IMG/VR virus record: IMGVR_UViG_3300002494_000025
Span: 32,001-96,000 of that record
DNA from: a virus
Direction: 5' to 3' (one strand)
Length of the DNA stretch: 64,000 nt
In this document: positions 4,293 to 52,237 of the stretch, one piece after another
Layout of the letters: every line of letters starts with the position of its first letter
Position numbering within the stretch: position 1 is the stretch's first letter
Position numbers and translations under genes: made by a program
The notes under the pieces: generated by a model
The model's input: only the letters and a program-made list of their open reading frames with translations
Databases searched by the model: none
What the model was told of the DNA's origin: nothing

Positions 4293-4928
4293 ATGGAATA
4301 TAAAGATGGGTTTGTATTTATAGATGATAGTAATAAAGTTGTAAGAGACACACTATAGTTCGTAAAATAGTCGATGTTTAACTTATATTCATTACAAAAA
4401 GTACATCAATTTTATTTGAAATTTGAATCAAACGGTAAAATAACACAGGATTTTATAAATCTACTCAATGAACGATACCAATCAATTCAAAATTAGATAC
4501 CACAATGGAAGTTAGAAACAAATACTGTTACATATTCAGGAACTGAGTACCACATACCAACTGTCTTAACCATAGAAAATCCAACAGTCACAGTAACTTT
4601 TTTAGAAACAAAAAATTTTGACATTTATAAAACATAGAAAAAATATTTGATTGTTGATAGAAACATATCCAATACGGACAATTTACTCAACAATAAATAC
4701 ATCATACACAAACCGACAAATTACTTTACTAAATTGGATGTTACATTATTTAGTTAGAAATATAAACCAAATAATAATGATATATCCCCCTATCTTACAG
4801 TCACCTTCTACAATTTGTACATAAAAAATATTTCTATTGATACTCAACTCAATGTTAACAACACTGAATTAGTATATACAACAATAGAATTTGCATATAC
4901 TCAAGTATTCTTAACACCAAGAGATTAA
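4293..4928 (+). CDS. Tail-tube-fold (gp19/gp48/gp54-like) protein 1; TAG-recoded
   Basis: GAGGTG RBS, open through TAGs to TAA at 4926. IPQWKLET..TVTFLE..TFYNLY..TTIEFAYT pattern shared with the downstream paralogs. Confidence 0.6.
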
Positions 4929-4945
4929 CTATAGAGGTGACATGA

Positions 4946-5623
4946 ATGTAGTCAGAAAAGGATAATTTACTAAAATATGATGATATGATTCATAAACTAT
5001 AGGACGATGTATAGTTTTTTAATTCATTCAAAATTATGGTTAGGAAGGTTAATTTTGAGGAAAACCTAAATAATAACCTCAATACACTATTACAAAAAAT
5101 CATGAGTAATTAGGTTTTATCCGCAAATAAACCAAATTATGAACGTGAGACATACTATGTTAGTGATAACGATATTATCACACGTTTAAATTTCATATTC
5201 TTTTTCGTAAACAGTATCGAAGGTCTTCCATCACCTCATATAGAAACAGAAGAGTATAGTTTTATTGGTAGAAAGTATCAAATACCAAAACATCAAACAG
5301 TAGAACATGAGTTAAGATTTACATTTATTGAATTGGAAGGTTTATACATTTACCGTCTGTTTACAACATATTTGTTACAAATATTTGACTATTATAATGG
5401 TTATTTGAAACTTAATGATAGAACCCAATACACTTTTGATTTGTCAGTATATGGACAATATAAAGATACATTCTATGGTCAAGATGTGGACTAGTACTTT
5501 ACAATTAATTTCTACAACGTATTTCCAGTTAATGTAAACTTTGGAAACGAATTACAATTTAATAATACAAGTTATGTAACAACAACTGTAACATTCAGAT
5601 ATGATTATTATGAACAAATATAA
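4946..5623 (+). CDS. Tail-tube-fold protein 2; TAG-recoded (begins ATG TAG)
   Basis: SIEGLPSPHIETEEYSFIGRKYQIP..LRFTFIE..FYNVFPVNV..TVTFRYDYYE, typical of T4 gp19-like proteins. Stop TAA at 5621. Confidence 0.7.
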
Positions 5624-5655
5624 TAAATTGTCAATCTCAATGGGGGTGAATTTAA

Positions 5656-6369
5656 ATGGCACTATCAGACTTAACAAGATGGAAATTAACCACTGATAAA
5701 ACGTTATACGATTACACAGCATATCCAATTTTCCAAGTAATTGAGTTAGAAACAACCAACAATTTTATGAATTATGCAAAAAATGATACAATGTGGAAAA
5801 AGTTTCAAAATAATCAAAATAATCAAGATAATTCTTAGATCACTGATGACAGTAAATTGTTAGCCACACTACAAAATGTATTTGTACGTGCTACCGCTAT
5901 AACATTCCCAGGATTTACCTGTGAAGTAACGGAAATACCACAACAGTTTTCGAATATAAAAATATAGAACAAAGTTTCATTCACAAACGAAATAACATTC
6001 AATTTTGTGGAAGACGCAGAAAATAACATATTCAAATTCTTTAAATCGTGGTTAGATCAAATACTTCTAGTGGATTATCAAACACCTGTGTACGGTGCAC
6101 AATACAATATTGCAAATAACTACAAAGTAAATATCACATTCGGTATATATAAAATTAATAACACAATAATGAATACTGTAACAAAATCAACAGGTTATAA
6201 TGGAAAAGATGGTTTTGATAGTACCAACATAATATTCAAATTTAAACTTCACGGTTTCTTCCCCAAATCGATCAACAATCCAACATATGATTACACAACA
6301 TTTGAAATCGTAACACGTGATGTTGGGTTTACATTCGATTATATAGAACTATTAACACCATCACTATAA
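5656..6369 (+). CDS. Tail-tube-fold protein 3; TAG-recoded
   Basis: Joins the ORF-track pieces at 5656 and 6007 (same frame) across TAGs. ITFPG..ITFNFVED..LHGFFPKSI..FTFDY. Confidence 0.7.
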
Positions 6370-6391
6370 TAAGAAACAAGAGGTGATATAA

Positions 6392-7078
6392 ATGTTAATT
6401 AACAATTTATTACAAAGTACAAAAAGTACACCAAGTGTTTCAACAACTACATATTTTCTCGTAGACCTTACAAATTTTGTTAATATAATTGATAAGACTG
6501 GTAATTTAAAAAACACAATAAACAAATACGTTAAATCTGTTACACTCCCAGAAAGAAAAGTCGATACCACATCTATTGAGGGTTAGATGTTATCAGTACA
6601 ACATGCCCAACTTAAACAGACTTTTGATACGTTTCAAATCACATTCTTTGATGATAAAAACTTTACAATCAGAACAAATCTTCTAAAGTACATGTTAAAA
6701 TCAGTTTTCGATTATACCAATCTTGTCTACAAAAGTGCAAGTACCTACAAATGTGATATTACAGTTTACGTTATTAACAACTTCTTGGGCAGTGATGTAA
6801 CACATACAGTAACAATAAATAATAATAATGTAAATACCACTGATATATCAACAATTGAAAATATTATTAACAACACACCAACAAACACGTAGATAACCAC
6901 AGTACCAGTATATATCTATAGATTCTATGGTTAGTTCCCAACAGAAATACCAGAAATAACATTTTCCACAACTGATGAATTAGAACCAACAATTACCGTA
7001 ACATTTACATACGATTGGTACAAAATCGATACTACAAATACTGAAAAAATAAATTTGGCACAACTTAGTTTAATCTAA
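6392..7078 (+). CDS. Tail-tube-fold protein 4; TAG-recoded
   Basis: KSVTLPER..FQITFFDD..FYG*FPTEI..TVTFTYDWY. Stop TAA at 7076. Confidence 0.75.
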
Positions 7079-7095
7079 TTGAGGTGGTGATTTGA

Positions 7096-7857
7096 ATGGC
7101 AATCAGTATAATAAATAGTGTTAACACATACAATGTTAGTACATACGACGCATTTAACAAATAGAAACTGTTTAGTAGACTACCTGTTGCATATTCAAAT
7201 GATATATCGTTCATCTTACGTGGTGAAGTAGTAAATGAATCAAATAATAATACATTCACTTCAAAACTTAACAACTCGTTTACAAGTTCAATAATGATAC
7301 GACTCAAATCGATATCATTACCAACTATGTCATTGGAAACAACAGAAATCCCCCATCTGTCATTCAACGCTAAAATGTAGTCTAAACCCACACTTGGTGA
7401 TGAAATAACAGTTTCAATAGTTGAAGATGCAAATTCAAATGTGTTCCTCAACTTTAAAGATTTTATTGAAACTTATTATAATTGGGTAATTTAGGTTCCA
7501 AACAATCCCAACTATAGTATCAAATTCCATATTGAATAGTTCTTAACACCATTGATACCAACTACTGTAAACAATATAAATTATTCATATTTATCGACAG
7601 CAAACACAAGTAGAAATAATGTAGCTGCAATAACAACTGTAAGTAATAATACAAACAACTTTACTGGAACACTTGGTACACGTATATTCAAAATAACACT
7701 GTATAATCCAATTATAAAGAACTTGAATCATCAAACCATGGATTATTCAAGCACCGAACTGATCAATAGAGATATTACAATTGGGTTTGAGTACTTTGAG
7801 TTTATTACATATATGTATGATAATAACAATCAACTAGTAAATGCACCATTGTTCTAA
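7096..7857 (+). CDS. Tail-tube-fold protein 5; TAG-recoded
   Basis: GAGGTGG RBS, MAISIINS start, KSISLPTMSLETTEIP..ITVSIVED..ITIGFEYF. Same frame as ORF-track piece 7552. Confidence 0.7.
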
Positions 7858-7892
7858 ATTTAGAATCATTAACTAACAGGGTGGTGATATAA

Positions 7893-8609
7893 ATGTTGAT
7901 CAATAGTGTATATAGTGATCAAAATAACATTTCTTATACTGTTACAGATGTGTTTAGACCAAATGCGTTTATAGTTAGTTTTACAGAATTCAAAAGTGAT
8001 AGTAAATTGTTTGAACAACTAAATAGTTTTATTAACAAATACTTAAAAGTATGTAATATTATAGATGATGATAAAAATAATAAACCATTCACCGAAATAT
8101 CAAACAATTTTTTTGGTACTAACAATAACAGTAATACTACTACTACTATTACATTCCATCAAAACATGTTACCATTACTTGCAAAAAGTGTAACATTACC
8201 AGATATAAACATTGAAGTAAGTGCAATTGACTTGGGATTATGGAAAACACAAAGAATAGTAAATAGAAAAACATTTGATACTTTCACGATAACATTCCAA
8301 GAGTTACGTGGTTTACCAGTTAGGTTATATTTCTTAAAATGGATGTTTGCGTACATAATAAACCCGTGGAGAGGTTATCATGTATAGCCAGATCTATATA
8401 AATCAATCATCAACGTACAAGTATTAAAGAATATAGATAAATATGATCCACTTTATGTAGTCAAATTCTATGGTTAGTTCCCAACAAATTTGAATGAACT
8501 AATACTATCATATGAAAACAGTGACATTTTAAACACTGAAGTGACATTTGTATACGATTACTTTGATATTGAACAAACACAACCAAAACAAGAAGAACAA
8601 AAAAAATAA
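7893..8609 (+). CDS. Tail-tube-fold protein 6; TAG-recoded
   Basis: FRPNAF..KSVTLPD..FTITFQE..FYG*FPTNL..EVTFVYDYF. Stop TAA at 8607. Confidence 0.75.
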
Positions 8610-10926: not shown

Positions 10927-11406
10927 ATGAGTGGTAGGTACTCACGACAAAAGGGTTATAGAATAGAATATGAACTCACCAAACTTTTACAATCTTATCA
11001 CATTAACAATAAACGTGTACCATTGAGCGGTGGAAGTTGGTTAAAAGGTGATATTATCATTGAACACAATAACAGAACATATATATGTGAAGTAAAAGGT
11101 GGTAGTAACAAATTTAAAATAATATATGACAAATTTCTAACATATAGAGATACAACAAACAAGTCATGTGTCTATCTTGGTGATTATGTTCTGTGTGATA
11201 TCCCAACATTTGTAAAACTTCTAAATAACGAAACAAATATCATTAATAGTATTAGTGACATTTTGAACATAACCAAACTAAATATGATCAATGATTATAT
11301 CGATAAAAAAGATGTATTGTTCATCAAACGTGACAGAAAAGAATATCTGGTAATATTTAGAAAACAACTATTTAACTCATCAAGTGGGGGTGTTACAAAT
11401 GGATAA
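10927..11406 (+). CDS. Hjc-like Holliday junction resolvase (PD-(D/E)xK nuclease)
   Basis: KGYRIEYE, RVPLSG, GDII and EVK motifs. No TAG and no Ala. Confidence 0.75.
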   Translation: MSGRYSRQKGYRIEYELTKLLQSYHINNKRVPLSGGSWLKGDIIIEHNNRTYICEVKGGSNKFKIIYDKFLTYRDTTNKSCVYLGDYVLCDIPTFVKLLNNETNIINSISDILNITKLNMINDYIDKKDVLFIKRDRKEYLVIFRKQLFNSSSGGVTNG

Positions 11407-11992
11407 TAGTTTCAAAATGGGGTAGTTAAAATATGGTACAATATTGTTATTTCCAGTCAAACCATATGTGTATGATCTAATTTAGAAACATTTTGGTAAA
11501 CCAATTTAGGAATTGTTACTTTAGACATCCGGTGAAAAAGTAATACATTAGGAAATTCTTGTGACTGGTACTATCACACTTGCATAGATCGATAAAGGTG
11601 TACATCTAATTAAAAGATCATTATCAGATTTTAAACATCTTGTACTCGTTAGACACAAAGATATGGATACAGTCTCACTACAAGATTATTTAAATACAGT
11701 ACATAAACATTGGAATGTTCCGTATGATTATGCATCTTTGTTCTTAAACACATTAACACACATTGTTAATAATGTTCCAATTCTTGACCAGATTATTGAA
11801 AAATATATTCATACAAATGTACCATATGAGAATAAACAAATGTATATTTGTTCTGAAACTGTTTAGAGAGTACTTGAAGATTTGAATCTACCATTATTCA
11901 CTGACAGATCACCTGAATACATATCACCAATGGATATATTGAGAAGTCCTAATGTTGATTTGTTATATAAACCAATCGATTTTGAATTGTGA
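11399..11992 (+). CDS. Permuted papain-like NlpC/P60 (YiiX/YebB-type) amidase/peptidase; TAG-recoded
   Basis: His (IH*EI) precedes Cys (YICSETV*R, cf. CSELVA), with a PYDY motif. Stop TGA at 11990. Confidence 0.7.
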
Positions 11993-19973: not shown

Positions 19974-20354
19974 TTAATCTTTTTCCCACCAGTCTCTGAG
20001 TTCATCCATAACTTCTCTGAGTTTCTTTGAAAATTCTGGATTGTTTGTCTTGTTCATGACTGCCTACCAATTCAATTTACCAATCATTTCCTTGTATGTT
20101 ACATCACCAGAGTTTATCTAACTCTTGGCACGACGAACCATTTCATCCTTTGATACATCTGCTAAATTTGTTTTTTTATCATATCTCAGTACATCGTGTA
20201 AACTCCCCTTGTCAATACTCTTTGGTAGTTGTTCAGTTATTTCTGTTTTTTTAGTCTATTTTTTCTTTTTTGAACACTATTCTATTAACTGTTTTGTTTC
20301 AACTAACTCTTGTTTAATTGACTGTAGTGTTTCAAATAATCCTGTCCTTAACAT
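19974..20354 (-). CDS. Hypothetical protein; TAG-recoded
   Basis: GAGGTGG RBS. MLRTGLFETL..KGSLHDVL..RDWWEKD, with 4 internal TAGs and a TAA stop. Confidence 0.6.
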
Positions 20355-20568
20355 TCATACCACCTCACTTTTGTGGAAATTGAGTTTTCAATAACGTTGA
20401 TTTGATCAAGACTATACTTTTCAAGACTTCGATATCAAGTCTATTCGAAACATCATAAAACATCCGATTGTATATATACACCCCTTTTCTAAAAACACAC
20501 CATCCCATTATAAGTTTATAATAGTATTAATTCATTTACTAATTTTTAAACGATTTGACAATCACATA

Positions 20569-21672
20569 AATGATAATATTATACTCAATACAATAATTGA
20601 ACTACAATCAAATGATACCAACAATGATTATATTTTGTATACAAATGATGTGTAGTTAATCTTAAAATAGAAAATGTTCAATGTTGAAACATATACAAAT
20701 ATTAAATTTATTGACATTGAAAATTTTCATACCCACCAGTTCAGAATTGTTAAGATAACAAACGACGATTTTGAACGTTTAATACCTGTCATAGAACGCA
20801 ATCGCTTCGAATCAAATGACATAATTATCAATCGTACTGAGTATAACGTTGATCATAATTCAATTGATTCATATTTCTACATTACAAATGAAGAACAAGA
20901 TGTAAAATACTTATTCAGAAAATTAGATGGTAATACATAGAGGTTTGTATCTATAGAGAAACTATTACATGCATATCTAAGTGAATATCAATACGAAAAC
21001 TATGGATTAAAGATAATTAAACCACGTGACGATGAACAGTTATAGCTACTTGATAGTTTCTTTACAGATACACTAATAATATCATTATAGAAGTCTGGTA
21101 CTGGAAAGACATTGTTATAGTTGTTTTATTAGATAACAGAAGTACTTAAAAATAGACTAAATAAAACGTTAATACCAAAAACATATTCAAAAATTATCTT
21201 TATCGCCAATAATTCAGTTATCCAACCCCGTAAAGAGTTGGGTTTCCTACCAGGTAGTAAACATGAGAAAATATTACCATTTATGAGTGGTATCATCGAT
21301 AATTTAGATTTTCTCTTTAATGGAAATATTAATAATGACTTTGATATAACAAAAACAGATGTGAATAGTCTATTTGAAATCCGACCAATTTAGTACATCA
21401 GAGGTTCATCAATAAATAATTAGATCGTAATTGTTGATGAAGTTCAAAATCTAACATGGCACGAATTAAAAACAATAGTGACACGTGTGAATACATCAAC
21501 ATCAAAATTAATTCTCATTGGTGATATACATCAAGTCGATGAAACAATGTAGATAGATTATCTTGGTATTATGAAATTGATCAATGTATTGTTTGATTCA
21601 AACCTACAAAATTGGAATTATATACCACTTACCACAAGTTATAGAAATATGTTCACAAACACACAAACATAA
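20569..21672 (+). CDS. phoH: PhoH-family ATPase with partial PIN domain (PhoH2-like); TAG-recoded; start uncertain
   Basis: [32 protein letters not shown] and GDIHQVD. Upstream TNDV*LILK*K resembles a PIN-domain tail. No clear start or RBS for the PIN part. Confidence 0.8.
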
Positions 21673-24571: not shown

Positions 24572-25741
24572 TTAATTCAATACTTTTAGTAATTCACGTG
24601 CAAGAAAACGGATAACTGGGACTGAAACTGAATTACCTGCTTGTTTGTACAGTTTACTTGTGGGATATGGTTGATTTCTATAAGTGGTGGGTAGTTTATA
24701 ACCATTATCAACAGGGAAACCTTGGATCTTAAACGCTTCTTTTGGTGTTATCATCCGGATTCCGTCTGGAACTCGTACAATAGTCATGTTAGTTGGATGT
24801 GTAGATGATGCGACTAATGCAGGACACAGTCCAGATTTATTTTTTCGTACATAGGAATTCCTTCTAATTTGGTAGAACCAATACATTTCATCAACTTCCT
24901 CTTCAAGATTGATTCTATTCTTTGGTCTTTTATCTGGTGGTAATTTCTCATACTCTTCCTTTGATACAAACAGATATGGATACTTTTCTTTTGTATAATA
25001 ATATTCAGGGTTATCTTTGATATTGATGTTAAGATCTAGTACATTCATACGTTCTTCCATTAATTGTTGAGGTGTTTTCCTGATTTTATATTTTTTAAGA
25101 TTGTTACCATCAAACAATGTAAATTTATCAACATCTTCTTTATTCAGAAATGCAAGAATATAGATTCTTGATCTGTTTTGTGGTAGTTCTGTATAATCTT
25201 TTGTGTTTATAACAGCATCTTTGACGGTATATCCCAAATCTTCAAGTGTAGTTCTAATAACTTTGTATGTATTTCCCCCATCATGTCGTTTTAAATGACT
25301 AACATTTTCCAGGAATAAAACACGTGGTTTTTTACCGAACACCTTTTCATGTTCAATTACAACATCCACGATTCTCCAGAACATTTCCCCCCTTGGGTCT
25401 TCAAATCCAAGTTTCTTACCTGCCACTGAGAAAGGTTGACATGGAAATCCAGCAGTTAGGATGTCAACATGATGAGAAAACATATCGTTCTTCAACTTCT
25501 TGTAATAACGAATTAGTTTAATGTTTTTTGCTAATTCCGGTTTAAGTATTTTTACAATATCACCATGTAGAATTCTGTGGTTGAAATTAGTTTGTAACGT
25601 TACAACTGCATAATTATCTATTTCATTTGACCAAATGATCTCGTATTTTTTATTTTCAACATCCTGGGTGGCAAGTATGAACCCCATTTCTATTCCACCC
25701 ACACCTGCAAACAGACTACCAACATAAAATAACTTCTCCAT
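24572..25741 (-). CDS. DNA (cytosine-5) methyltransferase, orphan
   Basis: LFAGVGG, GFPCQPFS, ENV, QNRSRIY and YKQAGNSV motifs. Confidence 0.95.
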   Translation of the reverse strand: MEKLFYVGSLFAGVGGIEMGFILATQDVENKKYEIIWSNEIDNYAVVTLQTNFNHRILHGDIVKILKPELAKNIKLIRYYKKLKNDMFSHHVDILTAGFPCQPFSVAGKKLGFEDPRGEMFWRIVDVVIEHEKVFGKKPRVLFLENVSHLKRHDGGNTYKVIRTTLEDLGYTVKDAVINTKDYTELPQNRSRIYILAFLNKEDVDKFTLFDGNNLKKYKIRKTPQQLMEERMNVLDLNINIKDNPEYYYTKEKYPYLFVSKEEYEKLPPDKRPKNRINLEEEVDEMYWFYQIRRNSYVRKNKSGLCPALVASSTHPTNMTIVRVPDGIRMITPKEAFKIQGFPVDNGYKLPTTYRNQPYPTSKLYKQAGNSVSVPVIRFLARELLKVLN

Positions 25742-25839: not shown

Positions 25840-27108
25840 TTATATCCGCATCGGTATTAACACATAAAAGTATGTAAGCTCACTATCAACTGGTGATATT
25901 TTGACTGGACTGACATTATCGACAAACTTAAACATACATTTACTTGTGTCTATATGTTTTATGATTTCGCTTAACAGTTTGGGGTTAAAACTAATAATCA
26001 AGTCACTTCCCTGTTTATCCACAATATCGAGTTCATCAATAACTTCACCAAAATCGGAACTTCTTACTATAAATCTTGTAATGTTATTAGTAATTTCCAG
26101 TACAAGTTTTTCCCCACTTTTGTTTGACAAGACTGATATATGTTTCAATGTCTCTTTCAATTTCTCTGTGTCGAACACTATCATAGTACTTGTGTTAATG
26201 TTAACAACTCGTGAATAGTCTGGAAATTTATCTTCAACAGTCCTGGTGATAATTTTTATATCGCCGGTATCAAACATCACAACTGAGGTATTGTATGATG
26301 TAGACACATTTATTTCTGGTTCTGTGGTTGTAGTTACTAATTTGTATATCTCTTTCATCGTTTTAAGATCTACAAGGAATTGAATAGACTGATTAATTGA
26401 TGTTTGAATTCTATCCGATGTTAGTCCTAGTCTATAACCATCAGTACCCACCAAAGTTAACTCATTATCTTTATTGACTAACCACAATACTGAATTCAAA
26501 TTCCTTAAATTGTAATCTGTGGATGTACAAAACAGTACCTTATCAATTAGTTCTTTTAATATGGATGTTTCTACTGTAAAAACATTATCAGTTTCACTTA
26601 CAAGAGTCTCAATATCTGGGAACTTATTCTCTTCAGAGTATGTTGTAAGTGTATATTTGGATTTTCCACTCTTGATAATTAGTTTACCATCATCTGTATG
26701 ATACATAAATGTAAGAACGTCATCTTTATCAAAACTTTTAACAATATCAAACAATAGATCTGATCTTACAAGAAACTTAGTTTCGTTACCACTACCACCA
26801 CTACCACTGAACTCGTATTCACTAACATTGATACTTGTTACAATTGTAGTTTGAAGATTTGTTGATACTAACTTAACCACTGGTTCCTTATCCATAAAAC
26901 CATTTTCAACTTTGAACAATATACATTGAAGTGTTGGATCAACTGTTCTAGAATTGGTAATATCATCAAGTATTTCAATTTTGTTGATAATATGATATTG
27001 TTTTACATTAAATGACACCACATTCTTTTTCAACATACTTTCTTCATTTAACCTCCTCTCAAAATTTTGTATGTTATTAACAATATACACAAGTTGTACA
27101 TTTACCAT
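25840..27108 (-). CDS. dnaN: Bacterial-type DNA polymerase III beta sliding clamp (start may be ATG at 27036)
   Basis: GTDGYRL, FPDYSRV, ISFNPK and C-terminal LIPMRI. No alanine at all. Confidence 0.9.
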   Translation of the reverse strand: MVNVQLVYIVNNIQNFERRLNEESMLKKNVVSFNVKQYHIINKIEILDDITNSRTVDPTLQCILFKVENGFMDKEPVVKLVSTNLQTTIVTSINVSEYEFSGSGGSGNETKFLVRSDLLFDIVKSFDKDDVLTFMYHTDDGKLIIKSGKSKYTLTTYSEENKFPDIETLVSETDNVFTVETSILKELIDKVLFCTSTDYNLRNLNSVLWLVNKDNELTLVGTDGYRLGLTSDRIQTSINQSIQFLVDLKTMKEIYKLVTTTTEPEINVSTSYNTSVVMFDTGDIKIITRTVEDKFPDYSRVVNINTSTMIVFDTEKLKETLKHISVLSNKSGEKLVLEITNNITRFIVRSSDFGEVIDELDIVDKQGSDLIISFNPKLLSEIIKHIDTSKCMFKFVDNVSPVKISPVDSELTYFYVLIPMRI

Positions 27109-35916: not shown

Positions 35917-36723
35917 ATGAAATTTCAAGTCAAAGGATTGGAAACTGAAGTTATCGTTGAGTTACCATCAAAAAATATTTTCTACGGTCTTCCACAAGAT
36001 TTAAGAGTTAAGGTTCGCCCAATGACAGTGAAGGAGCAGAAGACAATGTTGTCTATGAACGGTAACAACGTAGAGGATGTGATAAACTCAATTATATTTG
36101 CATGCTGCAAGTATGAAGATGGACGACCATTACCACAGGATTTGTTAATTGCAGATAGAGACTTTTTACTTAATGAAGTTAGAAAAATCACATACGGTTC
36201 TGATATTCAGTTAACATACACATGTGATAAATGTAATACAGAAAATAAAATACATTATGATCTAAACATGCTTGATACAATATCAATACCCGAAGATTTC
36301 AGAATTGAAGATTTACAATATACATCACAACACATAACAGATGAAGAAGGAAATCCAGTAGTATTCCAATTCATATTCCCCACAATTACAACAGTTAAAC
36401 AACAGAGCATGCTTTCTAAAAATAAACGTGACATTTTGATATATACCAGCATCGTATCGAATATATATGGTATTGTTGTAACTGAAGTTGGTGAGGATGG
36501 AAAGGTCACAAAAACAGTTAAACAGTTGAGTCTTGAAGATAAGAAGAATCTTCTTGAAGTACTTATGCAAACACCTGCAATTGAGATTACGAATATGTTA
36601 ACCTTTATGAAAGAACATTCTTTTGATGGTATACAAAAGTCTGTGTCATTCACATGTTCCAATTGTGGTACTGATAACGATGTTGTCATTATAAATCAAG
36701 ATTACTTTTTTCCTATTAGATGA
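35917..36723 (+). CDS. Baseplate hub assembly protein (T4 gp26-like)
   Basis: RPMTVKEQK, DLLIADRDFLL..R..YG, two CxxC motifs, ends with FF. Confidence 0.7.
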   Translation: MKFQVKGLETEVIVELPSKNIFYGLPQDLRVKVRPMTVKEQKTMLSMNGNNVEDVINSIIFACCKYEDGRPLPQDLLIADRDFLLNEVRKITYGSDIQLTYTCDKCNTENKIHYDLNMLDTISIPEDFRIEDLQYTSQHITDEEGNPVVFQFIFPTITTVKQQSMLSKNKRDILIYTSIVSNIYGIVVTEVGEDGKVTKTVKQLSLEDKKNLLEVLMQTPAIEITNMLTFMKEHSFDGIQKSVSFTCSNCGTDNDVVIINQDYFFPIR

Positions 36724-42786: not shown

Positions 42787-44064
42787 ATGTAGAAAGTGTT
42801 AACAAACATAAATAGTATCCAAAATATTGAAAGAACGAATCAAAACGAAATTACCATTACAACAGAATCTTCAAAATCAATACGATACAAATTTAATGTG
42901 GATACAAATAAAATACCCAACGGTAAAACATAGGTTGGGTTGTATCGAGATATTATCGAAAATGTTGAGACGGGGGATGTGGATGTAATTCAGGATCATA
43001 ACGATATTACAGATTTATTTGTAAAACACTTGATATATCGTCTATTTATAAATAACGGTATTACTGAAACTGTTGATTATGACAGATATTTCAACATACC
43101 ATAGGATTCATAGTTTCTTAGTATGATAAAACCATACAAATAGACCTCCGAATCTGAATTTATATTACCACTTTCAAAATATCTTGGTATTCATTCCTGG
43201 GAAGTGGGTATTGGACATGAGAGTTGGGATTCTCCACAAAATTTGTATGGATTTACATATAACGAATATGGTTTTCCAATACGTGTCACAACTGGTTCGG
43301 GTGGTTCTAGTACATATGTACCACATTCCTCCCTTCAAATTTATAAGGATACAATTAAAAAATATCATAGTGTGAATGATTTGTAGTACAATGACACAAA
43401 TATTACACACCATAACTCGTTAATTTGTAGAATTCCACCACAATTGTTACAATATGGAAATTTTTATCAAATTAGTAGTACTCAAAAAACATATTCGTTG
43501 TATTCGTACCGTAAACCAGTTCAGGTATTTTTTGTTTTACCTACACAGTATTTACTTGATGATAATACTGTTGTTACCGATCCAATTACAATTTTAAACA
43601 AACTGAAAACAGGAGAGTATGTTACTGAACGCGTAATTGAGTGGTTACCGTATACGGGAAATAATGTACTCTATGGTATAAGTAATACGTTGATAAATCA
43701 GATGAAGGTCAGTTACATCATACCTGAATTCATAATGGTGCAATAGATTTTTGAACCATTTGAGGCAAACTTTACATGGAGAGAATTTGGTGTATTGGCA
43801 GGATTTAACACATTTGTCAGTACAAGTGGTACTACAAATCTTAACACAATTGAAACGGAAGAAAATGAACCAAATGCAAGTTTGATGGCATGGATGAAAC
43901 ATAACAATGTAAATACGACAATCTCTGAATTCCACCCACTTGTGTATCCAAGAGGTACTTTTATCGATTACAAAGTTCATAAAGCAATAAACAAAACAAG
44001 AAATATGCGAATTACAAGACAAATAATCTTTGGAATTCTCAATATATCGTCACAATTGTTATGA
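42787..44064 (+). CDS. Probable baseplate/tail structural protein; TAG-recoded (begins ATG TAG)
   Basis: AAGGGGG RBS. ORF-track pieces 43204, 43444 and 43795 are in one frame. FTWREFGVL motif. Confidence 0.6.
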
Positions 44065-48465: not shown

Positions 48466-50577
48466 TCACAAGATATCAATATTATCATCGGTGAATTCTT
48501 CATCTAAAAACACACCATACTATACTTGTATTATGTAAATTGATTGGTTTGTTTGTTCATATTGTTGTATGTATTTTTCGGATTTTTTAACTTTCTATAA
48601 TATCTCTTTTAGTTCGAATTGTATACGTTCTTTTATCTATGACACATCAAATTTATATGTTTTGATACGTGTTGTAACATCGATAACATCGGGTATTTGT
48701 TTAACATTTTCAAGTTGATGTGACTAAGTATCGTACATATCTTTCAAAAATGAACGGATGATTGATAAATCAAATTTATAATCCTTATATTGTTCCGAAA
48801 GTTTTTTAACTAAATTGATTCTATTATCTTTTGTGAATTTAATATCTATTGGTAGTTCTAATTGTTTTAACATTTCAATTCTTTCTTCACTAAATTCTTT
48901 TAATAGGTCTTTTACAATATTGTGCATGTTTTTGTTAATCAATGAAAATTTATCACGGTCGACAAGTTTTACCAATTCATCTGAATTTCCTGTTAGTTTT
49001 CTTAGCACAACACCCTCGATTTCTTGTTGTTTTTCATCTGTGATGATATCGTTGACATACTATATTAAAATATCTTTGATATTCAACATATAGTTACTTC
49101 TAACATAGTTCTATAACATCTCCCGGAGTTCTTTTATTTGTTGTCTATATTCTTTTGGAACTCTGTTTAATTTTATTGTTATCTATTCAAAAACTGTTAA
49201 ATCCTTAAATTGGGTAGGAACTGATATATCAGGTATCTCACTTAGTTTTTTGTTCAAGAATTGTTTCAATTCATTGAGGTGTTTTTCAATTTCAGTTTTA
49301 ACTTTAGAGAGGTATTTGTTAATATCGAAATACTCCACAGTATCAACAGACCAAGTTTCAGAGATTTGTTTCTATACAATATCATCATTTTCAAGATCTG
49401 GTACATACTATGTTACGTTCACTGTTATTGGTTCAGTTGATTTAAGTTCTTCATACAGTGATAATAAATCCTTATCAAGTTCATTAATATCGATGTTACT
49501 ATCTGTAAATCGTGGGAGTGGTCTTAAATAGATTGTTTTTGATGTTGAACTATTGTATTTTATTGTGTTTGTGTATAACGTTGATACCAATTCACACTCC
49601 CATTCGATTTGTTTACCATAATATTTGTTAAGATATTTGTCAAAAATATTTTTATATTTTTGATACAATGTAGTAACAAACTATGTCTAACTTCTAATGG
49701 CGTTATACTGTGGGATTTTAGGTATTTCTTTCCAGTTATACCATGGTATCTATTTACCTCCGAACGATTTACGACGGATTGTATATATTTGTCCATTTGT
49801 ATCGATACCGAAGGAAAGGTTCTAAACACCATCGATTTTGATTGATGTTAATAATGGTTCAGTTTCATACAGTATCTATTCAATATAGTCAATGAATTCA
49901 TTTACTGGGATATCTTCAATATGTGAAATTTCAGTTAATAACTATTCTGACACATTCTATTTAGATACATTTCTTTTTGGTTTTGGTGTGAATATATCAT
50001 CACCATATTCTTGTTTTAGGAAGTTAACATACTCTACAATGAGATCAAACAATTGAAGGACTGGTGTTGCAAGTAATTGTTTCTATGTTTCATAATCACC
50101 ATTAAAGAGTGCATTTCTCAGTTTTGTCTAAGAGATTTCATCGTCTGATTCAACATTTCTTGGAAGTTCTTCAACTTTAATTTTGTCACTAAGATTTACA
50201 CGTTTTAATTGTCCTTCATATGTTTGTTTTCTATCAGTTCCACAGTAAACCTTTACGATTTCAATGTCATCATATTTATTCTTTATGTATTCGCTAATAT
50301 TTGGTATATATCCAACATTGAATACTTCAACGATCTAACTTTTATTGTATTTATGTTTTAAATCGTTTATGATAGCTTTAATAAATAGTGTTCTAAGTTC
50401 CTAGTCAAATGGATTTTTGTAGACATCTTGACTTGTTTTACTACCCTATATTATCTATACAATGACAACATCTATATCATTATCTCGGAATGCAACTTCC
50501 AGTAATTTTTGATGCTATTTTGTAACACCTTGGAATCTACCAAGTATTAGTCCACCTCTAAATATTTTTTTATCCAT
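48466..50577 (-). CDS. Fusion of an HxGH-type (cytidylyl/NMN adenylyl) nucleotidyltransferase-like domain and a ligase-like KxDG domain; TAG-recoded
   Basis: N-terminal GRFQGVTK*H, NPF, CGTDR and IS*TKLRNAL, then SHIED, KIDG and EIEGVVLR. One frame to TGA at 48466. Confidence 0.65.
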
Positions 50578-50614: not shown

Positions 50615-52237
50615 TCAAATTTTCAAAATCCAATCATAGTCATTATTGGTTATGTTTTCAGTCTCATTATTTACTTCTTGTTGTTTGTTTTTATTAATGA
50701 TTTTTTTACTCTCTTTTAAGTTTATTCTGAGTATTGTGTTTTCAATATGTTCAAATGTCTATTTTAAATTAATCCGATTTTGTTCAATCAACTGATTTCT
50801 CTAATAATATGCAAATGACAACTACATTACAAGGTCGTCATTATATCCATGTTTTGCTTGTGGTTTACCACCACGGTATACAAAGACTAGTAACTCACTT
50901 ATAATTCTTTCACTTCTGATATTTTCTGGAAATTCAGTAACGTATTCCTTCATCTATTTCAATATTAATGGTCGGGTAATTGCAGTAGTAATGATACCGT
51001 ATGTACGAGTTTGGGATCGTTTTTCGAGATCTTGTGTGTTGATTTTCTATTCTTCTTTTGTACTGGAGATGTATTTGTCGATGAACAAATTTGAATAACC
51101 TTTTTCACGTAGACGTCTTGCAACCTATAATCCCCATCCACCGGTAACTTCTATCTATATCGACTATGTGTTGTAATATTTACCAATCTCTATTAATACA
51201 TCCTAATATTCAACATCTGATATATGTTTACTTGTAAAATCCTATACAACTTTACCATCTTCGTCAATTACAACGAACTAAGACTAGTCATTTGACATTC
51301 CAGAAGCAACGTCTACGCCTATGATATACTATTTATTTTCCTTCACTTCTTCATACATATAAACTTCCCAACCGTTAATTTCAAATGAACTTATTGGTTT
51401 TTGTTGTGACTTTTGTAATTTTTCTAGTGTTACAGAATCCAAGTATGTGTCATTAGATGAAATGAAATGTAACTCTAATTCTTGCATTATTGCAAGATGG
51501 TCATTACCAAGTATTTCACATTGTTGTTTGTACCATGTATCGTCATAATACGGAATATCTCTCCAGTGGAATCTGAACAATGTATATGGTGGGTTATCTG
51601 AATTTATCTACTATTCATAATATCTATAGTAATCATTATCCACACCATTGGGTGTTGAATTGAGGATAATACCCCATGGAATACCAGAATTCTATATCGT
51701 AGCAAGTGTTGGTGCTAACTATTTTAACTATTCTTCAAGATTTGGGACAAACTACTACTCATCTACAATAACAGTTGACAATCTAAAAGAACGAAACGGG
51801 TTATTCGTATTACCCTATCGGATTACACTACCGTTAGAAAAATGGAGAGACTTTTTAAGAGGTCTCTCCAACTTAGGTAACCATGAAATTTTTGATAATT
51901 CGGAAATCTCATACATTTCTTTTATGTCTTGTAAGAATTGGTTTGCTTTATCTTGTTCAATTGATAAGATACCGATATAGTATCTACTATAAAACAACTA
52001 CAACCACAGTGATAATGCTTGTAATGTAGTGGACATACCTGTTTGTCGTGATTTTAACACCAACATCTTATGTTTTTCCAACCATAGTCGAATAAATTCT
52101 TTTTGTTTTTCAAACATTTTAAATGGTACAACACCCATTCTTTGATTAAAAATTTTTATATAATTTTCAATAAAATAAATGGGGTCTGTTTTACATTTTA
52201 AATATTCTTGTATGTTATCGAGTTTTGTATTTTCCAT
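50615..52237 (-). CDS. terL: Terminase large subunit (T4 gp17-like); about 22 in-frame TAGs
   Basis: KSRQTGMST, IVDE**F, STPNG, GVDVASG and DDLVM*L. Single frame to TGA at 50615. Confidence 0.92.

Follow-up and report, generated by a model that had tools for sequence, protein, structure and literature searches.

A GpC-depleted, T4-like phage that probably reads UAG as alanine

We examined a 64,000-nucleotide stretch of viral DNA (the window), bases 32001–96000 of the 135,374-bp IMG/VR record IMGVR_UViG_3300002494_000025, so that a window coordinate is the contig coordinate minus 32000. The record is labelled a provirus in IMG/VR and has a CheckV completeness of 76%. Several lines of evidence suggest that its core belongs to a tailed phage of T4-like type whose genetic code is its own: UAG would stand for alanine and be read by a tRNA with a CUA anticodon, tRNA(CUA), encoded by the phage; we put the probability of this reading at roughly 0.88. 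The same interpretation had been offered by a first-pass annotation made from the letters of the window, and it is supported by the residues that homologues carry at TAG columns, by the exchange of codons between relatives and by the alanine-type body of tRNA(CUA). The core has also lost most of its GpC dinucleotides, which we propose as the reason for the recoding.

Results

TAG is a sense codon in the phage core

Open reading frames (ORFs) of at least 100 amino acids cover 50.7% of the core of the record (contig 26.7–130.3 kb) under code 11 and 88.8% of it when TAG is a sense codon; control computations that made TGA or TAA the sense codon reached 56.6% and 72.9%, respectively. Our core ORF set comprises frames of at least 70 amino acids with TAG read through, and 59 of its 97 members contain at least one TAG (389 in total), in agreement with the first-pass annotation, which had seen many genes split by in-frame TAG. 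All 16 of the positions quoted there that we checked carry TAG or ATG-TAG (51752, 51755, 50822, 21118, 21391, 21421, 6932, 8475, 11864, 718, 1087, 1090, 4946/4949 and 42787/42790). The core ORFs end in TAA (67) or TGA (30), a split that follows from the ORF definition, in which TAG was never allowed as an end. TAG is, almost certainly, a sense codon in this phage.

The TAG load ranges from 2 to 41 per gene in packaging, tail, fibre, lysis-type and several enzyme genes. Among the genes with TAG are those for terminase, tail tube, fibre, M15 peptidase and the PhoH-like ATPase, and among those free of it are the PolB, DnaN, SNF2, RecA-like, Mre11-like, primase and C5-methyltransferase genes. This enrichment in structural, packaging and lysis genes and avoidance in replication genes is known from phage recoding, and it is present here apart from one baseplate gene. 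The label of late genes that had been given to the TAG-bearing set fits the terminase, tube, fibre and M15 peptidase genes and the lack of TAG from most replication genes, but it is only roughly right.

Related terminase genes occur on metagenome contigs that we call L010–L013, and those of L010, L011 and L013 were compared with the phage gene codon by codon. Terminase identity to the phage is 88% for L010, 53% for L011 and 47% for L012, and the phage terminase keeps its motifs; L011 has only two recognisable genes in common with the phage. Searches for close relatives among viral contigs gave none by single protein and only matches of 22–31% identity by alignment, and genome contigs gave none. 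TAG positions of the terminase gene are conserved in these independent metagenome contigs at 17 of 18 aligned sites in L010, 12 of 22 in L011 and 7 of 9 in L013.

These comparisons bear on the idea that the in-frame TAGs are never translated and instead reflect assembly or sequencing errors, pseudogenes or RNA-edited codons, an idea to which the probable chimerism of the contig at its ends lends some colour. Errors would not be expected to recur, but three independent metagenome contigs share the TAG positions, the reading frames show conservation and no other damage, and TAG falls preferentially on columns of conserved alanine, unlike errors or decay. We also mapped contigs of two public runs, a DNA run and an RNA-seq library from one sample of one study described as 'hot springs metagenome', onto contig 20–32 kb, where the contigs of both agree with the record: those of the RNA library contain 48 of the 57 in-frame TAGs of that region, and none of the 14 listed differences between the run contigs and the record falls on a TAG. 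RNA editing over contig 20–32 kb is unlikely, and the probability that the TAGs are artefacts or decay is negligible. RNA-library contigs at a depth of 5–20 also cover the TAG-rich fibre and radical-SAM genes (contig 25.5–32 kb), a hint of expression rather than proof, as DNA carry-over is possible. Over the first 4.4 kb of mapped left flank there is one short RNA-library piece (mean depth ~1 in one 400-base bin), and missing cover there is not evidence of silence.

Distant homologues favour alanine at TAG columns

To read the meaning of TAG from protein families we aligned the terminase with 111 homologues at 29–33% identity (P0013–P0123), leaving out the nine closest (P0004–P0012), whose translations are suspect, and the PhoH-like ATPase with 103 distant homologues (P0141–P0243), leaving out the 17 closest. 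The column test rests on these two proteins; most of the TAG-rich structural proteins have no Pfam or PHROGs family. In the terminase, where the earlier count of 22 TAG and 10 GCN codons, or about 6% alanine, proved exact, alanine is the commonest residue in nine of the 22 TAG columns (105, 107, 107, 101, 69, 106, 101, 84 and 58 of the 111 homologues) and is enriched 5.85-fold over TAG columns, with glutamine at 0.23-fold. A Codetta-style computation over 21 usable columns gave log2-odds of +6.8 bits for alanine, −33.8 for serine and −74.5 for glutamine; run on other codons as controls, it returned the standard meaning for 34 of the 40 codons with at least four occurrences, including GCA as alanine and CAA as glutamine. 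In PhoH, alanine is commonest at TAG codons 162 (97 of 103) and 263 (69 of 103); glycine leads two further TAG columns, one of them the first glycine of Walker A, cysteine, threonine, asparagine and phenylalanine lead one each, one column is variable and one is all gaps. Terminase and PhoH combined (30 usable columns) gave +6.2 for alanine, −42.5 for serine and −102.2 for glutamine, so that homologue residues at TAG favour alanine and strongly disfavour glutamine. The first-pass annotation had placed the TAGs of its quoted motifs on conserved alanines, and some of these fit less well than stated there: in 'PI*YIRG' of PhoH threonine is found in 77 of 103 homologues and alanine in 6, and in 'D*S' of the terminase tyrosine is found in 81 of 111.

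Relatives exchange TAG with alanine codons

Between the phage terminase and that of L011, a phage GCN codon meets TAG at 7 of 10 aligned sites, and the 26 aligned TAGs of L011 fall on phage TAG 12 times and on phage GCA or GCT seven times. In L013 the corresponding figures are 4 of 5 sites, and 13 aligned TAGs of which seven fall on phage TAG and four on phage GCN. Phage CAA or CAG codons meet a TAG of the relative at 0 of 18 sites in L011, 0 of 14 in L013 and 1 of 15 in L010. As TAG differs from GCN codons at two or three positions and from CAG at one, the exchange follows meaning and not mutational proximity. This argument, made from codons of close relatives, is independent of the distant alignments.

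A competing assignment is glutamine (NCBI code 15), known from crAss-like, Lak and further recoded phages of the gut, with the alanine signal an accident of alignment. Precedent speaks for it, glutamine being the sole amber reassignment for phages that differ from their host in the accessible text of Borges et al. (10.1101/2021.08.26.457843), as do the TAG–CAA exchanges with L010, one in each direction, and the public translations of the nine terminase and 17 PhoH relatives, which show Q at these positions. But glutamine leads none of the 22 terminase and none of the 10 PhoH TAG columns, its combined log2-odds lie far below those of alanine, and true glutamine columns hold CAA or CAG in the phage, not TAG. 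In addition, the A73, G1-C72 and G3:U70 of tRNA(CUA) are reportedly not identity elements of glutaminyl-tRNA synthetase (GlnRS).

The public translations themselves are unusual. The nine close terminase relatives have 0–1.8% alanine and 7.4–10.5% glutamine, compared with medians of 6.6% and 4.9% in the distant homologues, and in the protein collection they carry Q at conserved alanine columns; among the 17 close PhoH relatives (P0124–P0140) alanine is at 0–1.5% and Q stands at the TAG positions. The Q in these public proteins is best explained by gene calling under code 15, because the same positions are TAG in L010, L011 and L013, the three contigs whose DNA was compared. Taken with the columns, this makes a glutamine meaning very unlikely. 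Some clade proteins derive from contigs of 204 kb and 231 kb, and the clade may include jumbo phages.

A second possibility is that TAG stands for another small residue (serine, glycine, cysteine or threonine), or for an ambiguous mixture of alanine with another residue or with termination by release factor 1 (RF1). Serine is the second-best residue by log2-odds, columns led by glycine, serine, cysteine or threonine occur at PhoH TAG codons 152, 166, 12 and 253 and terminase TAG codons 173, 303 and 345, and no RF1-neutralising factor was found in the record, which would suit ambiguity. Alanine is nevertheless ahead of serine by ~49 bits over the 30 columns, and TAG swaps with GCN far more often than with serine or glycine codons between relatives. 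The tRNA(CUA) has a 5-nt variable loop rather than the long arm of tRNA-Ser, and has G3:U70. Alanine at glycine, serine or cysteine columns would be an ordinary conservative substitution, the reverse of the pattern in the TAG-free genes described below. We consider a different or mixed meaning distinctly unlikely, and alanine the probable one.

The contig encodes an alanine-type tRNA(CUA)

The window itself contains no tRNA gene and no Rfam match. Three RNA genes lie within 700 bp of one another elsewhere on the contig, 66 kb downstream of the terminase gene: tRNA-Ala(UGC), tRNA(CUA) and a transfer-messenger RNA (tmRNA), which begins 7 nt past tRNA(CUA) and ~250 nt past tRNA-Ala(UGC) (Table 1). 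A CUA tRNA with G3:U70, for which the first-pass annotation had suggested a search, is thus present on the contig, outside the window, as judged by ARAGORN fold and Rfam alignment. Its acceptor stem has G1-C72, G2-C71, a G3:U70 wobble and G4-C69, it carries A73, G20 and an encoded CCA, and its D arm differs little from the one in the adjacent tRNA-Ala(UGC). Alanyl-tRNA synthetase (AlaRS) recognises its substrates by G3:U70, A73, G1-C72, G2-C71 and G20 and does not read the anticodon. Host AlaRS should charge tRNA(CUA), because the alanine identity set is present and the anticodon is not read, and all three RNAs of the cluster are known or predicted AlaRS substrates.

ARAGORN labels the gene tRNA-Pyl, a label given from the anticodon only. 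Pyrrolysine tRNAs have a short variable loop, a small D loop and a long anticodon stem; this one is a normal cloverleaf (model positions 1–71 of 71, with 5 bp in the anticodon stem and 5 nt in the variable loop), and we rejected the assignment, although no search was made for pyl genes.

As a control, 78 further viral tRNA(CUA) genes with a matching D-arm and anticodon-loop pattern were extracted from 68 IMG/VR loci. G3:U70 is absent from all 78, and the 68 loci have GpC observed/expected ratios (o/e) of 0.80–1.37, none of them GpC-poor. A stricter scan of IMG/VR, for CUA or UUA anticodons on a body like that of tRNA-Ala, had no matches. The looser D-arm pattern with UUA as anticodon found five tRNA(UUA), one with G:U at 3:70 but also A1, A2 and G73 and lying in DNA of normal GpC content, which we judged unrelated. 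ARAGORN found no tRNA in L010–L013, three of these four contigs being shorter than 1.8 kb.

The DNA on both sides of the cluster is GpC-poor, with a 1,421-codon gene bearing 24 TAGs upstream and genes with five and six TAGs downstream, including the M15 peptidase gene. Just downstream of the cluster lie tandem paralogues (contig 119266–119757 and 119990–120460) that are 73% identical; with 4.3% and 5.8% GCN they are alanine-rich for this phage, with a single TAG around codon 35 in each and no Pfam match for either. That the tmRNA relieves ribosomes which have read through UAG stops of the host is speculation.

GpC is purged from the core, and GCN codons with it

GpC o/e in the core is 0.25, a depletion of about four-fold, and the deficit is seen at codon positions 1-2, 2-3 and 3-1 (0.31, 0.15 and 0.18) as well as between genes, where 39 GpC were observed and 187 expected. 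Synonymous choice is correspondingly skewed, with AGC:AGT at 23:688, TGC:TGT at 6:124, GGC in 20 of 1,071 glycine codons and CGC in 6 of 852 arginine codons; other C-ending codons are common (ACC:ACT is 262:595). Depletion extends to all 16 NGCN contexts (0.09–0.63) and is mildest in TGCA and GGCA. Depletion in all codon positions and between genes indicates a pressure on the DNA and not on alanine as such. GpT (1.24) and ApC (1.27) are in excess by o/e, which fits deamination and is also expected under selection. Among the relatives, L010–L013 have GpC o/e of 0.27, 0.15, 0.06 and 0.04 and eleven distant terminase loci have 0.84–1.18; GpC depletion is a trait of the clade.

Alanine is the sole amino acid with GpC in every codon. 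The 31,379 core codons include 383 GCN and 389 TAG, so that TAG would make up about half of the alanine codons if it is read as alanine. Genes with at least two TAGs have 1.10% GCN and 1.96% TAG, TAG-free genes have 1.38% GCN, and genes of the contig flanks have 7.10% GCN. The loss of alanine from TAG-free genes is illustrated by DnaN, for which 149 homologues have a median alanine content of 6.0% (compare Table 1): at its seven alanine-majority columns it carries S, S, C, G, G, T and V. Of two DnaN relatives, one that is 75% identical (P0244) has 0.3% alanine and one that is 45% identical (P0245) has 6.0%.

The gene for a C5 cytosine DNA methyltransferase has 13 GCN and is among the more alanine-rich core genes in this nearly GpC-free genome. 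Its best solved relative is M.HhaI, over the catalytic part only, and its specificity is not readable from PDB relatives. A TET/JBP search found none, but found none in any control genome either. A 479-codon TAG-free ORF inside the GpC-poor core (contig 110866–112305, plus strand) has 26 GCN (5.4% alanine) and may be a recent acquisition.

A relative may use UAA for alanine

L012 is a contig of 1,749 bp with 21% G+C, on which the terminase frame runs for 570 codons to a TGA and contains 49 TAA, six TAG and no GCN. TAA occupies the alanine pair of the Walker B motif and ten other alanine-majority columns, and over 33 usable columns the log2-odds for TAA are +15.7 for alanine and −36.3 for serine; many of the TAAs fall in an unaligned low-complexity tail, where the true gene end is uncertain. 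This one short contig suggests that in the lineage of L012 UAA, and perhaps UAG, is alanine and UGA is the sole stop. The placement of conserved alanines on TAG or TAA instead of GCN, which is complete in the L012 terminase, indicates that GCN itself is costly.

The ends of the record are probably foreign

The core has 28.8% G+C, compared with 41.9% (GpC o/e 1.31) in the left flank, the first 26.7 kb, and 37.4% (GpC o/e 0.88) in the right flank, the last 5 kb. The left flank encodes a virion set of its own, with terminase, SPP1-type portal, SU10-type capsid, tube and tape measure; on the right are genes for NrdD and a full-length MutS. In the mapped runs, the left part is covered by a 19.8-kb contig of depth 48 that ends near contig 24.6 kb and the right part by a contig of depth 328 that begins near contig 25.5 kb; none of the mapped contigs bridges the junction (24.4–25.6 kb), with short high-depth pieces only in between. 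Because of their normal GpC and alanine content, the extra virion genes and the unbridged junction with its jump in depth from 48 to 328, we rejected the idea that the phage includes the leftmost 24.6 kb and the rightmost 5 kb; both ends are probably mis-joined foreign DNA, and the GpC-poor core of ~104 kb is probably the phage in question. A repeated fibre module (QDWSxWxHW...) lies at the left gap, with a second, inverted copy at contig 129.1–130.1 kb (129136–130089), and the presence of the module at both junctions may mean that the two phages share one host. In the flanks, both the standard-code phage and the host-like genes are normal in GpC, and the purge therefore does not copy their composition.

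The flanks also bear on whether the host itself reads UAG as alanine, in which case the phage would mirror its host's code and the GpC purge would be unrelated. No release-factor gene was found on the phage, a host search by tmRNA tag among 185,579 species genomes gave no match and no host genome entered the comparison, all of which such a host would accommodate. Against it, tRNA(CUA) is encoded by the phage itself, and 38 of the 97 core ORFs, mainly replication genes, do without TAG even though GCN is missing from them too, as expected for a phase of infection free of suppressor. Flank genes have 7.1% GCN and normal GpC, with 10 in-frame TAGs, which may be real stops, left by the ORF caller in 8,630 flank codons; that the flanks come from the same host we infer only from the shared fibre module. 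A host-wide alanine code is unlikely, and we retain a phage-specific reading of UAG as alanine.

Features of the record

The features discussed are listed in Table 1. PhoH proteins of relatives are 440–500 amino acids long with an N-terminal PIN domain. Upstream of the phage PhoH gene (20200–20640) only the last part of a PIN domain can be recognised in the frame, preceded by stops of the TAA and TGA kind, and the domain seems truncated or decayed.

Table 1. Coordinates of features (window numbering unless marked as contig)
Feature	Position	Strand	Remarks
Whole window	1–64000		inside the GpC-purged, TAG-recoded core, by composition
Tail-tube gene	6392–7078	+	3 TAG; phrog_45 tail tube, E 1e-19; belongs to a group of tube-like paralogues, 4293–8609
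202-codon ORF	11384–11992	+	the 'amidase' of the first-pass annotation; 7 in-frame TAG; no Pfam match
PhoH-like ATPase gene	20635–21672	+	10 in-frame TAG; N-terminal PIN part absent or diverged
C5 cytosine DNA methyltransferase gene	24572–25741	-	PF00145, 227.9 bits; true start probably the ATG 3' of a single upstream TAG
DnaN sliding-clamp gene	25840–27108	-	TAG-free; 0 Ala in 422 residues
425-codon ORF starting ATG-TAG	42787–44064	+	7 in-frame TAG; no family match (Pfam, PHROGs)
703-codon ORF with N-terminal cytidylyltransferase-like domain	48466–50577	-	23 TAG; phrog_395 cytidyltransferase
Large terminase gene, T4 gp17 type	50615–52237	-	540 codons, 22 TAG, 10 GCN, TGA end; Pfam Terminase_6C; PDB T4 gp17, E 4e-23
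tRNA-Ala(UGC)	contig 118483–118558	+	outside the window; ARAGORN; Rfam 73.4 bits
tRNA(CUA)	contig 118731–118806	+	outside the window; ARAGORN; Rfam 67.0 bits; proposed Ala-inserting amber suppressor
tmRNA, full-length	contig 118813–119172	+	outside the window; tag ANEYIPLAA; ARAGORN; Rfam 204.3 bits

Discussion

The reading proposed here can be put as a sequence of steps. Replication and recombination genes, without TAG and almost without GCN, would be translated under the standard code of the host before tRNA(CUA) accumulates, their alanines having been exchanged for serine, glycine, cysteine, threonine or valine. Host AlaRS, blind to the anticodon, would by the identity rules as generally given charge the phage tRNA(CUA) with alanine, and once the tRNA is expressed the TAG-bearing genes would be read through.

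Several observations weigh against this reading. The amino acid at TAG is deduced from alignments and tRNA identity elements only, and alanine does not lead in 13 of the 22 TAG columns of the terminase: methionine, isoleucine, serine, glycine, serine, tyrosine, glycine, valine, lysine, valine and leucine lead eleven of them, one is variable and one is mostly gaps. PhoH taken alone is weak, with alanine leading two of its 10 columns and log2-odds of −0.6 for alanine, −8.7 for serine and −27.7 for glutamine over nine columns. Among paralogues within the genome (10 pairs at 19–73% identity, one above 35%), TAG meets alanine once and threonine, isoleucine or valine most often, the pairs being too divergent for this use. 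The single TAG–CAA exchanges in each direction with L010 are the only contrary cases in the codon comparison. The T4_baseplate gene at 35917–36723 is also TAG-free, which makes the early/late split imperfect, and three ORFs have their only TAG within the last 8% of the frame; TAG may also end some genes. The tRNA(CUA) gene is not in the window but elsewhere on a contig with probably mis-joined ends, and its link to the terminase phage is by composition and TAG-bearing neighbours, not by reads. Finally, messages with 22 to 41 UAGs would face host RF1 without a neutralising factor found in the record, and neither a release-factor gene (RF-1 domain, RF2), for which the first-pass annotation had suggested a search, nor an AlaRS gene was found there, the record being 76% complete and absence therefore not shown.

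Why UAG should have become alanine may be answered by the GpC purge, which we favour, with some reserve, as the reason for the recoding. Under a DNA pressure against GpC, TAG (TAA in L012) would be a GpC-free alanine codon for places where alanine is needed, every GCN containing the GpC that the DNA avoids. The purge would then force a choice: lose alanine, as in the TAG-free genes, or adopt a new alanine codon, as in the TAG-bearing ones. Two causes of the purge can be envisaged. A GpC-directed host nuclease or other defence might select against GpC, with the methyltransferase protecting what remains; or GpC methylation, with deamination accelerated by heat at hot-spring temperature, might make GpC hypermutable. 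In either case the purge points to a GpC-directed pressure on phage DNA. Extended to the relatives, the proposal is that the clade has moved alanine from GCN to stop codons (UAG in this phage, L010, L011 and L013, mainly UAA in L012), driven by GpC-free DNA, which we hold to be evenly balanced between right and wrong. The odds are likewise level for the part of it by which the code change would reflect selection on the dinucleotide content of DNA, by way of AlaRS-compatible suppressor tRNAs, rather than on translation or lysis timing.

If the alanine reading is true, this is, to judge by our literature search, the first stop-to-alanine code in a prokaryote virus, it takes phage recoding beyond glutamine and tryptophan, and it is a natural use of the anticodon-blind AlaRS rule to rewrite a code. 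Gene callers that offer codes 4, 11 and 15 only would mistranslate the clade, which distorts annotation, structure prediction and phylogeny. The tRNA(CUA) is also a candidate natural alanine-inserting amber suppressor from a thermal habitat.

Like the recoded crAss-like, Lak, Agate and Jade phages (codes 15 and 4), the phage has TAG in structural, packaging and lysis genes and a suppressor tRNA of its own, with a host presumed to use the standard code. It differs from the recoded gut phages in using alanine rather than glutamine, in the absence of any RF2 gene found, and in the tie to a genome-wide GpC purge, which is not described in the parts of those reports available to us. To the extent that their accessible text covers the matter, only TAG read as glutamine and TGA read as tryptophan have been seen in phages with a code unlike that of the host (Borges et al., 10.1101/2021.08.26.457843), phAss-1 (PMC10607447) and the crAss-like cases (PMC9523058) have TAG as glutamine, and Cook et al. 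consider glutamine and tryptophan reassignments. The Codetta screen (PMC8629427) mentions AGG as alanine in green-algal mitochondria and CUG as alanine in yeasts, and has nothing in its accessible text on UAG as alanine. A full-text literature search turned up no phage or bacterium in which UAG or UAA is reported to mean alanine, although supplementary files might hold cases. The closest parallel is mitochondrial: UAG is said to be alanine in some green algae (Sphaeropleales), the same codon and the same amino acid, but in an organelle with a tiny gene set and not in a prokaryote virus, and we know of no link to dinucleotide avoidance there.

The proposed charging follows the G3:U70 rule, said to go back to Hou and Schimmel and to McClain and Foss, 1988, by which a tRNA with G3:U70 is reportedly charged by AlaRS whatever its anticodon. 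An engineered alanine-inserting suppressor appears in the accessible part of PMC11662663. Laboratory tRNA-Ala(CUA) would work by the same mechanism, but those were engineered or selected, and this would be a natural phage gene serving hundreds of codons.

For the purge itself, the nearest likeness is the CpG depletion of vertebrate genomes and their viruses, likewise a several-fold loss of a palindromic dinucleotide with an excess of transition products; here the dinucleotide is GpC, the genome is that of a phage, and the genetic code and the alanine content of the proteome appear to have been reshaped. Phage GpC-specific C5-methyltransferases with TET hypermodification have been described by Burke et al. 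2021 (PMC8256090), and M.CviPI is a comparable chlorovirus enzyme. Our phage likewise encodes a C5-methyltransferase, of which only the catalytic part matches M.HhaI, so that a GpC specificity is not readable from it. As far as the accessible text goes, those phages modify GpC; this phage has largely deleted it. The architecture matches known phage stop-codon recoding, and what would be new is the amino acid, alanine, the sub-variant that uses UAA and the proposed GpC driver.

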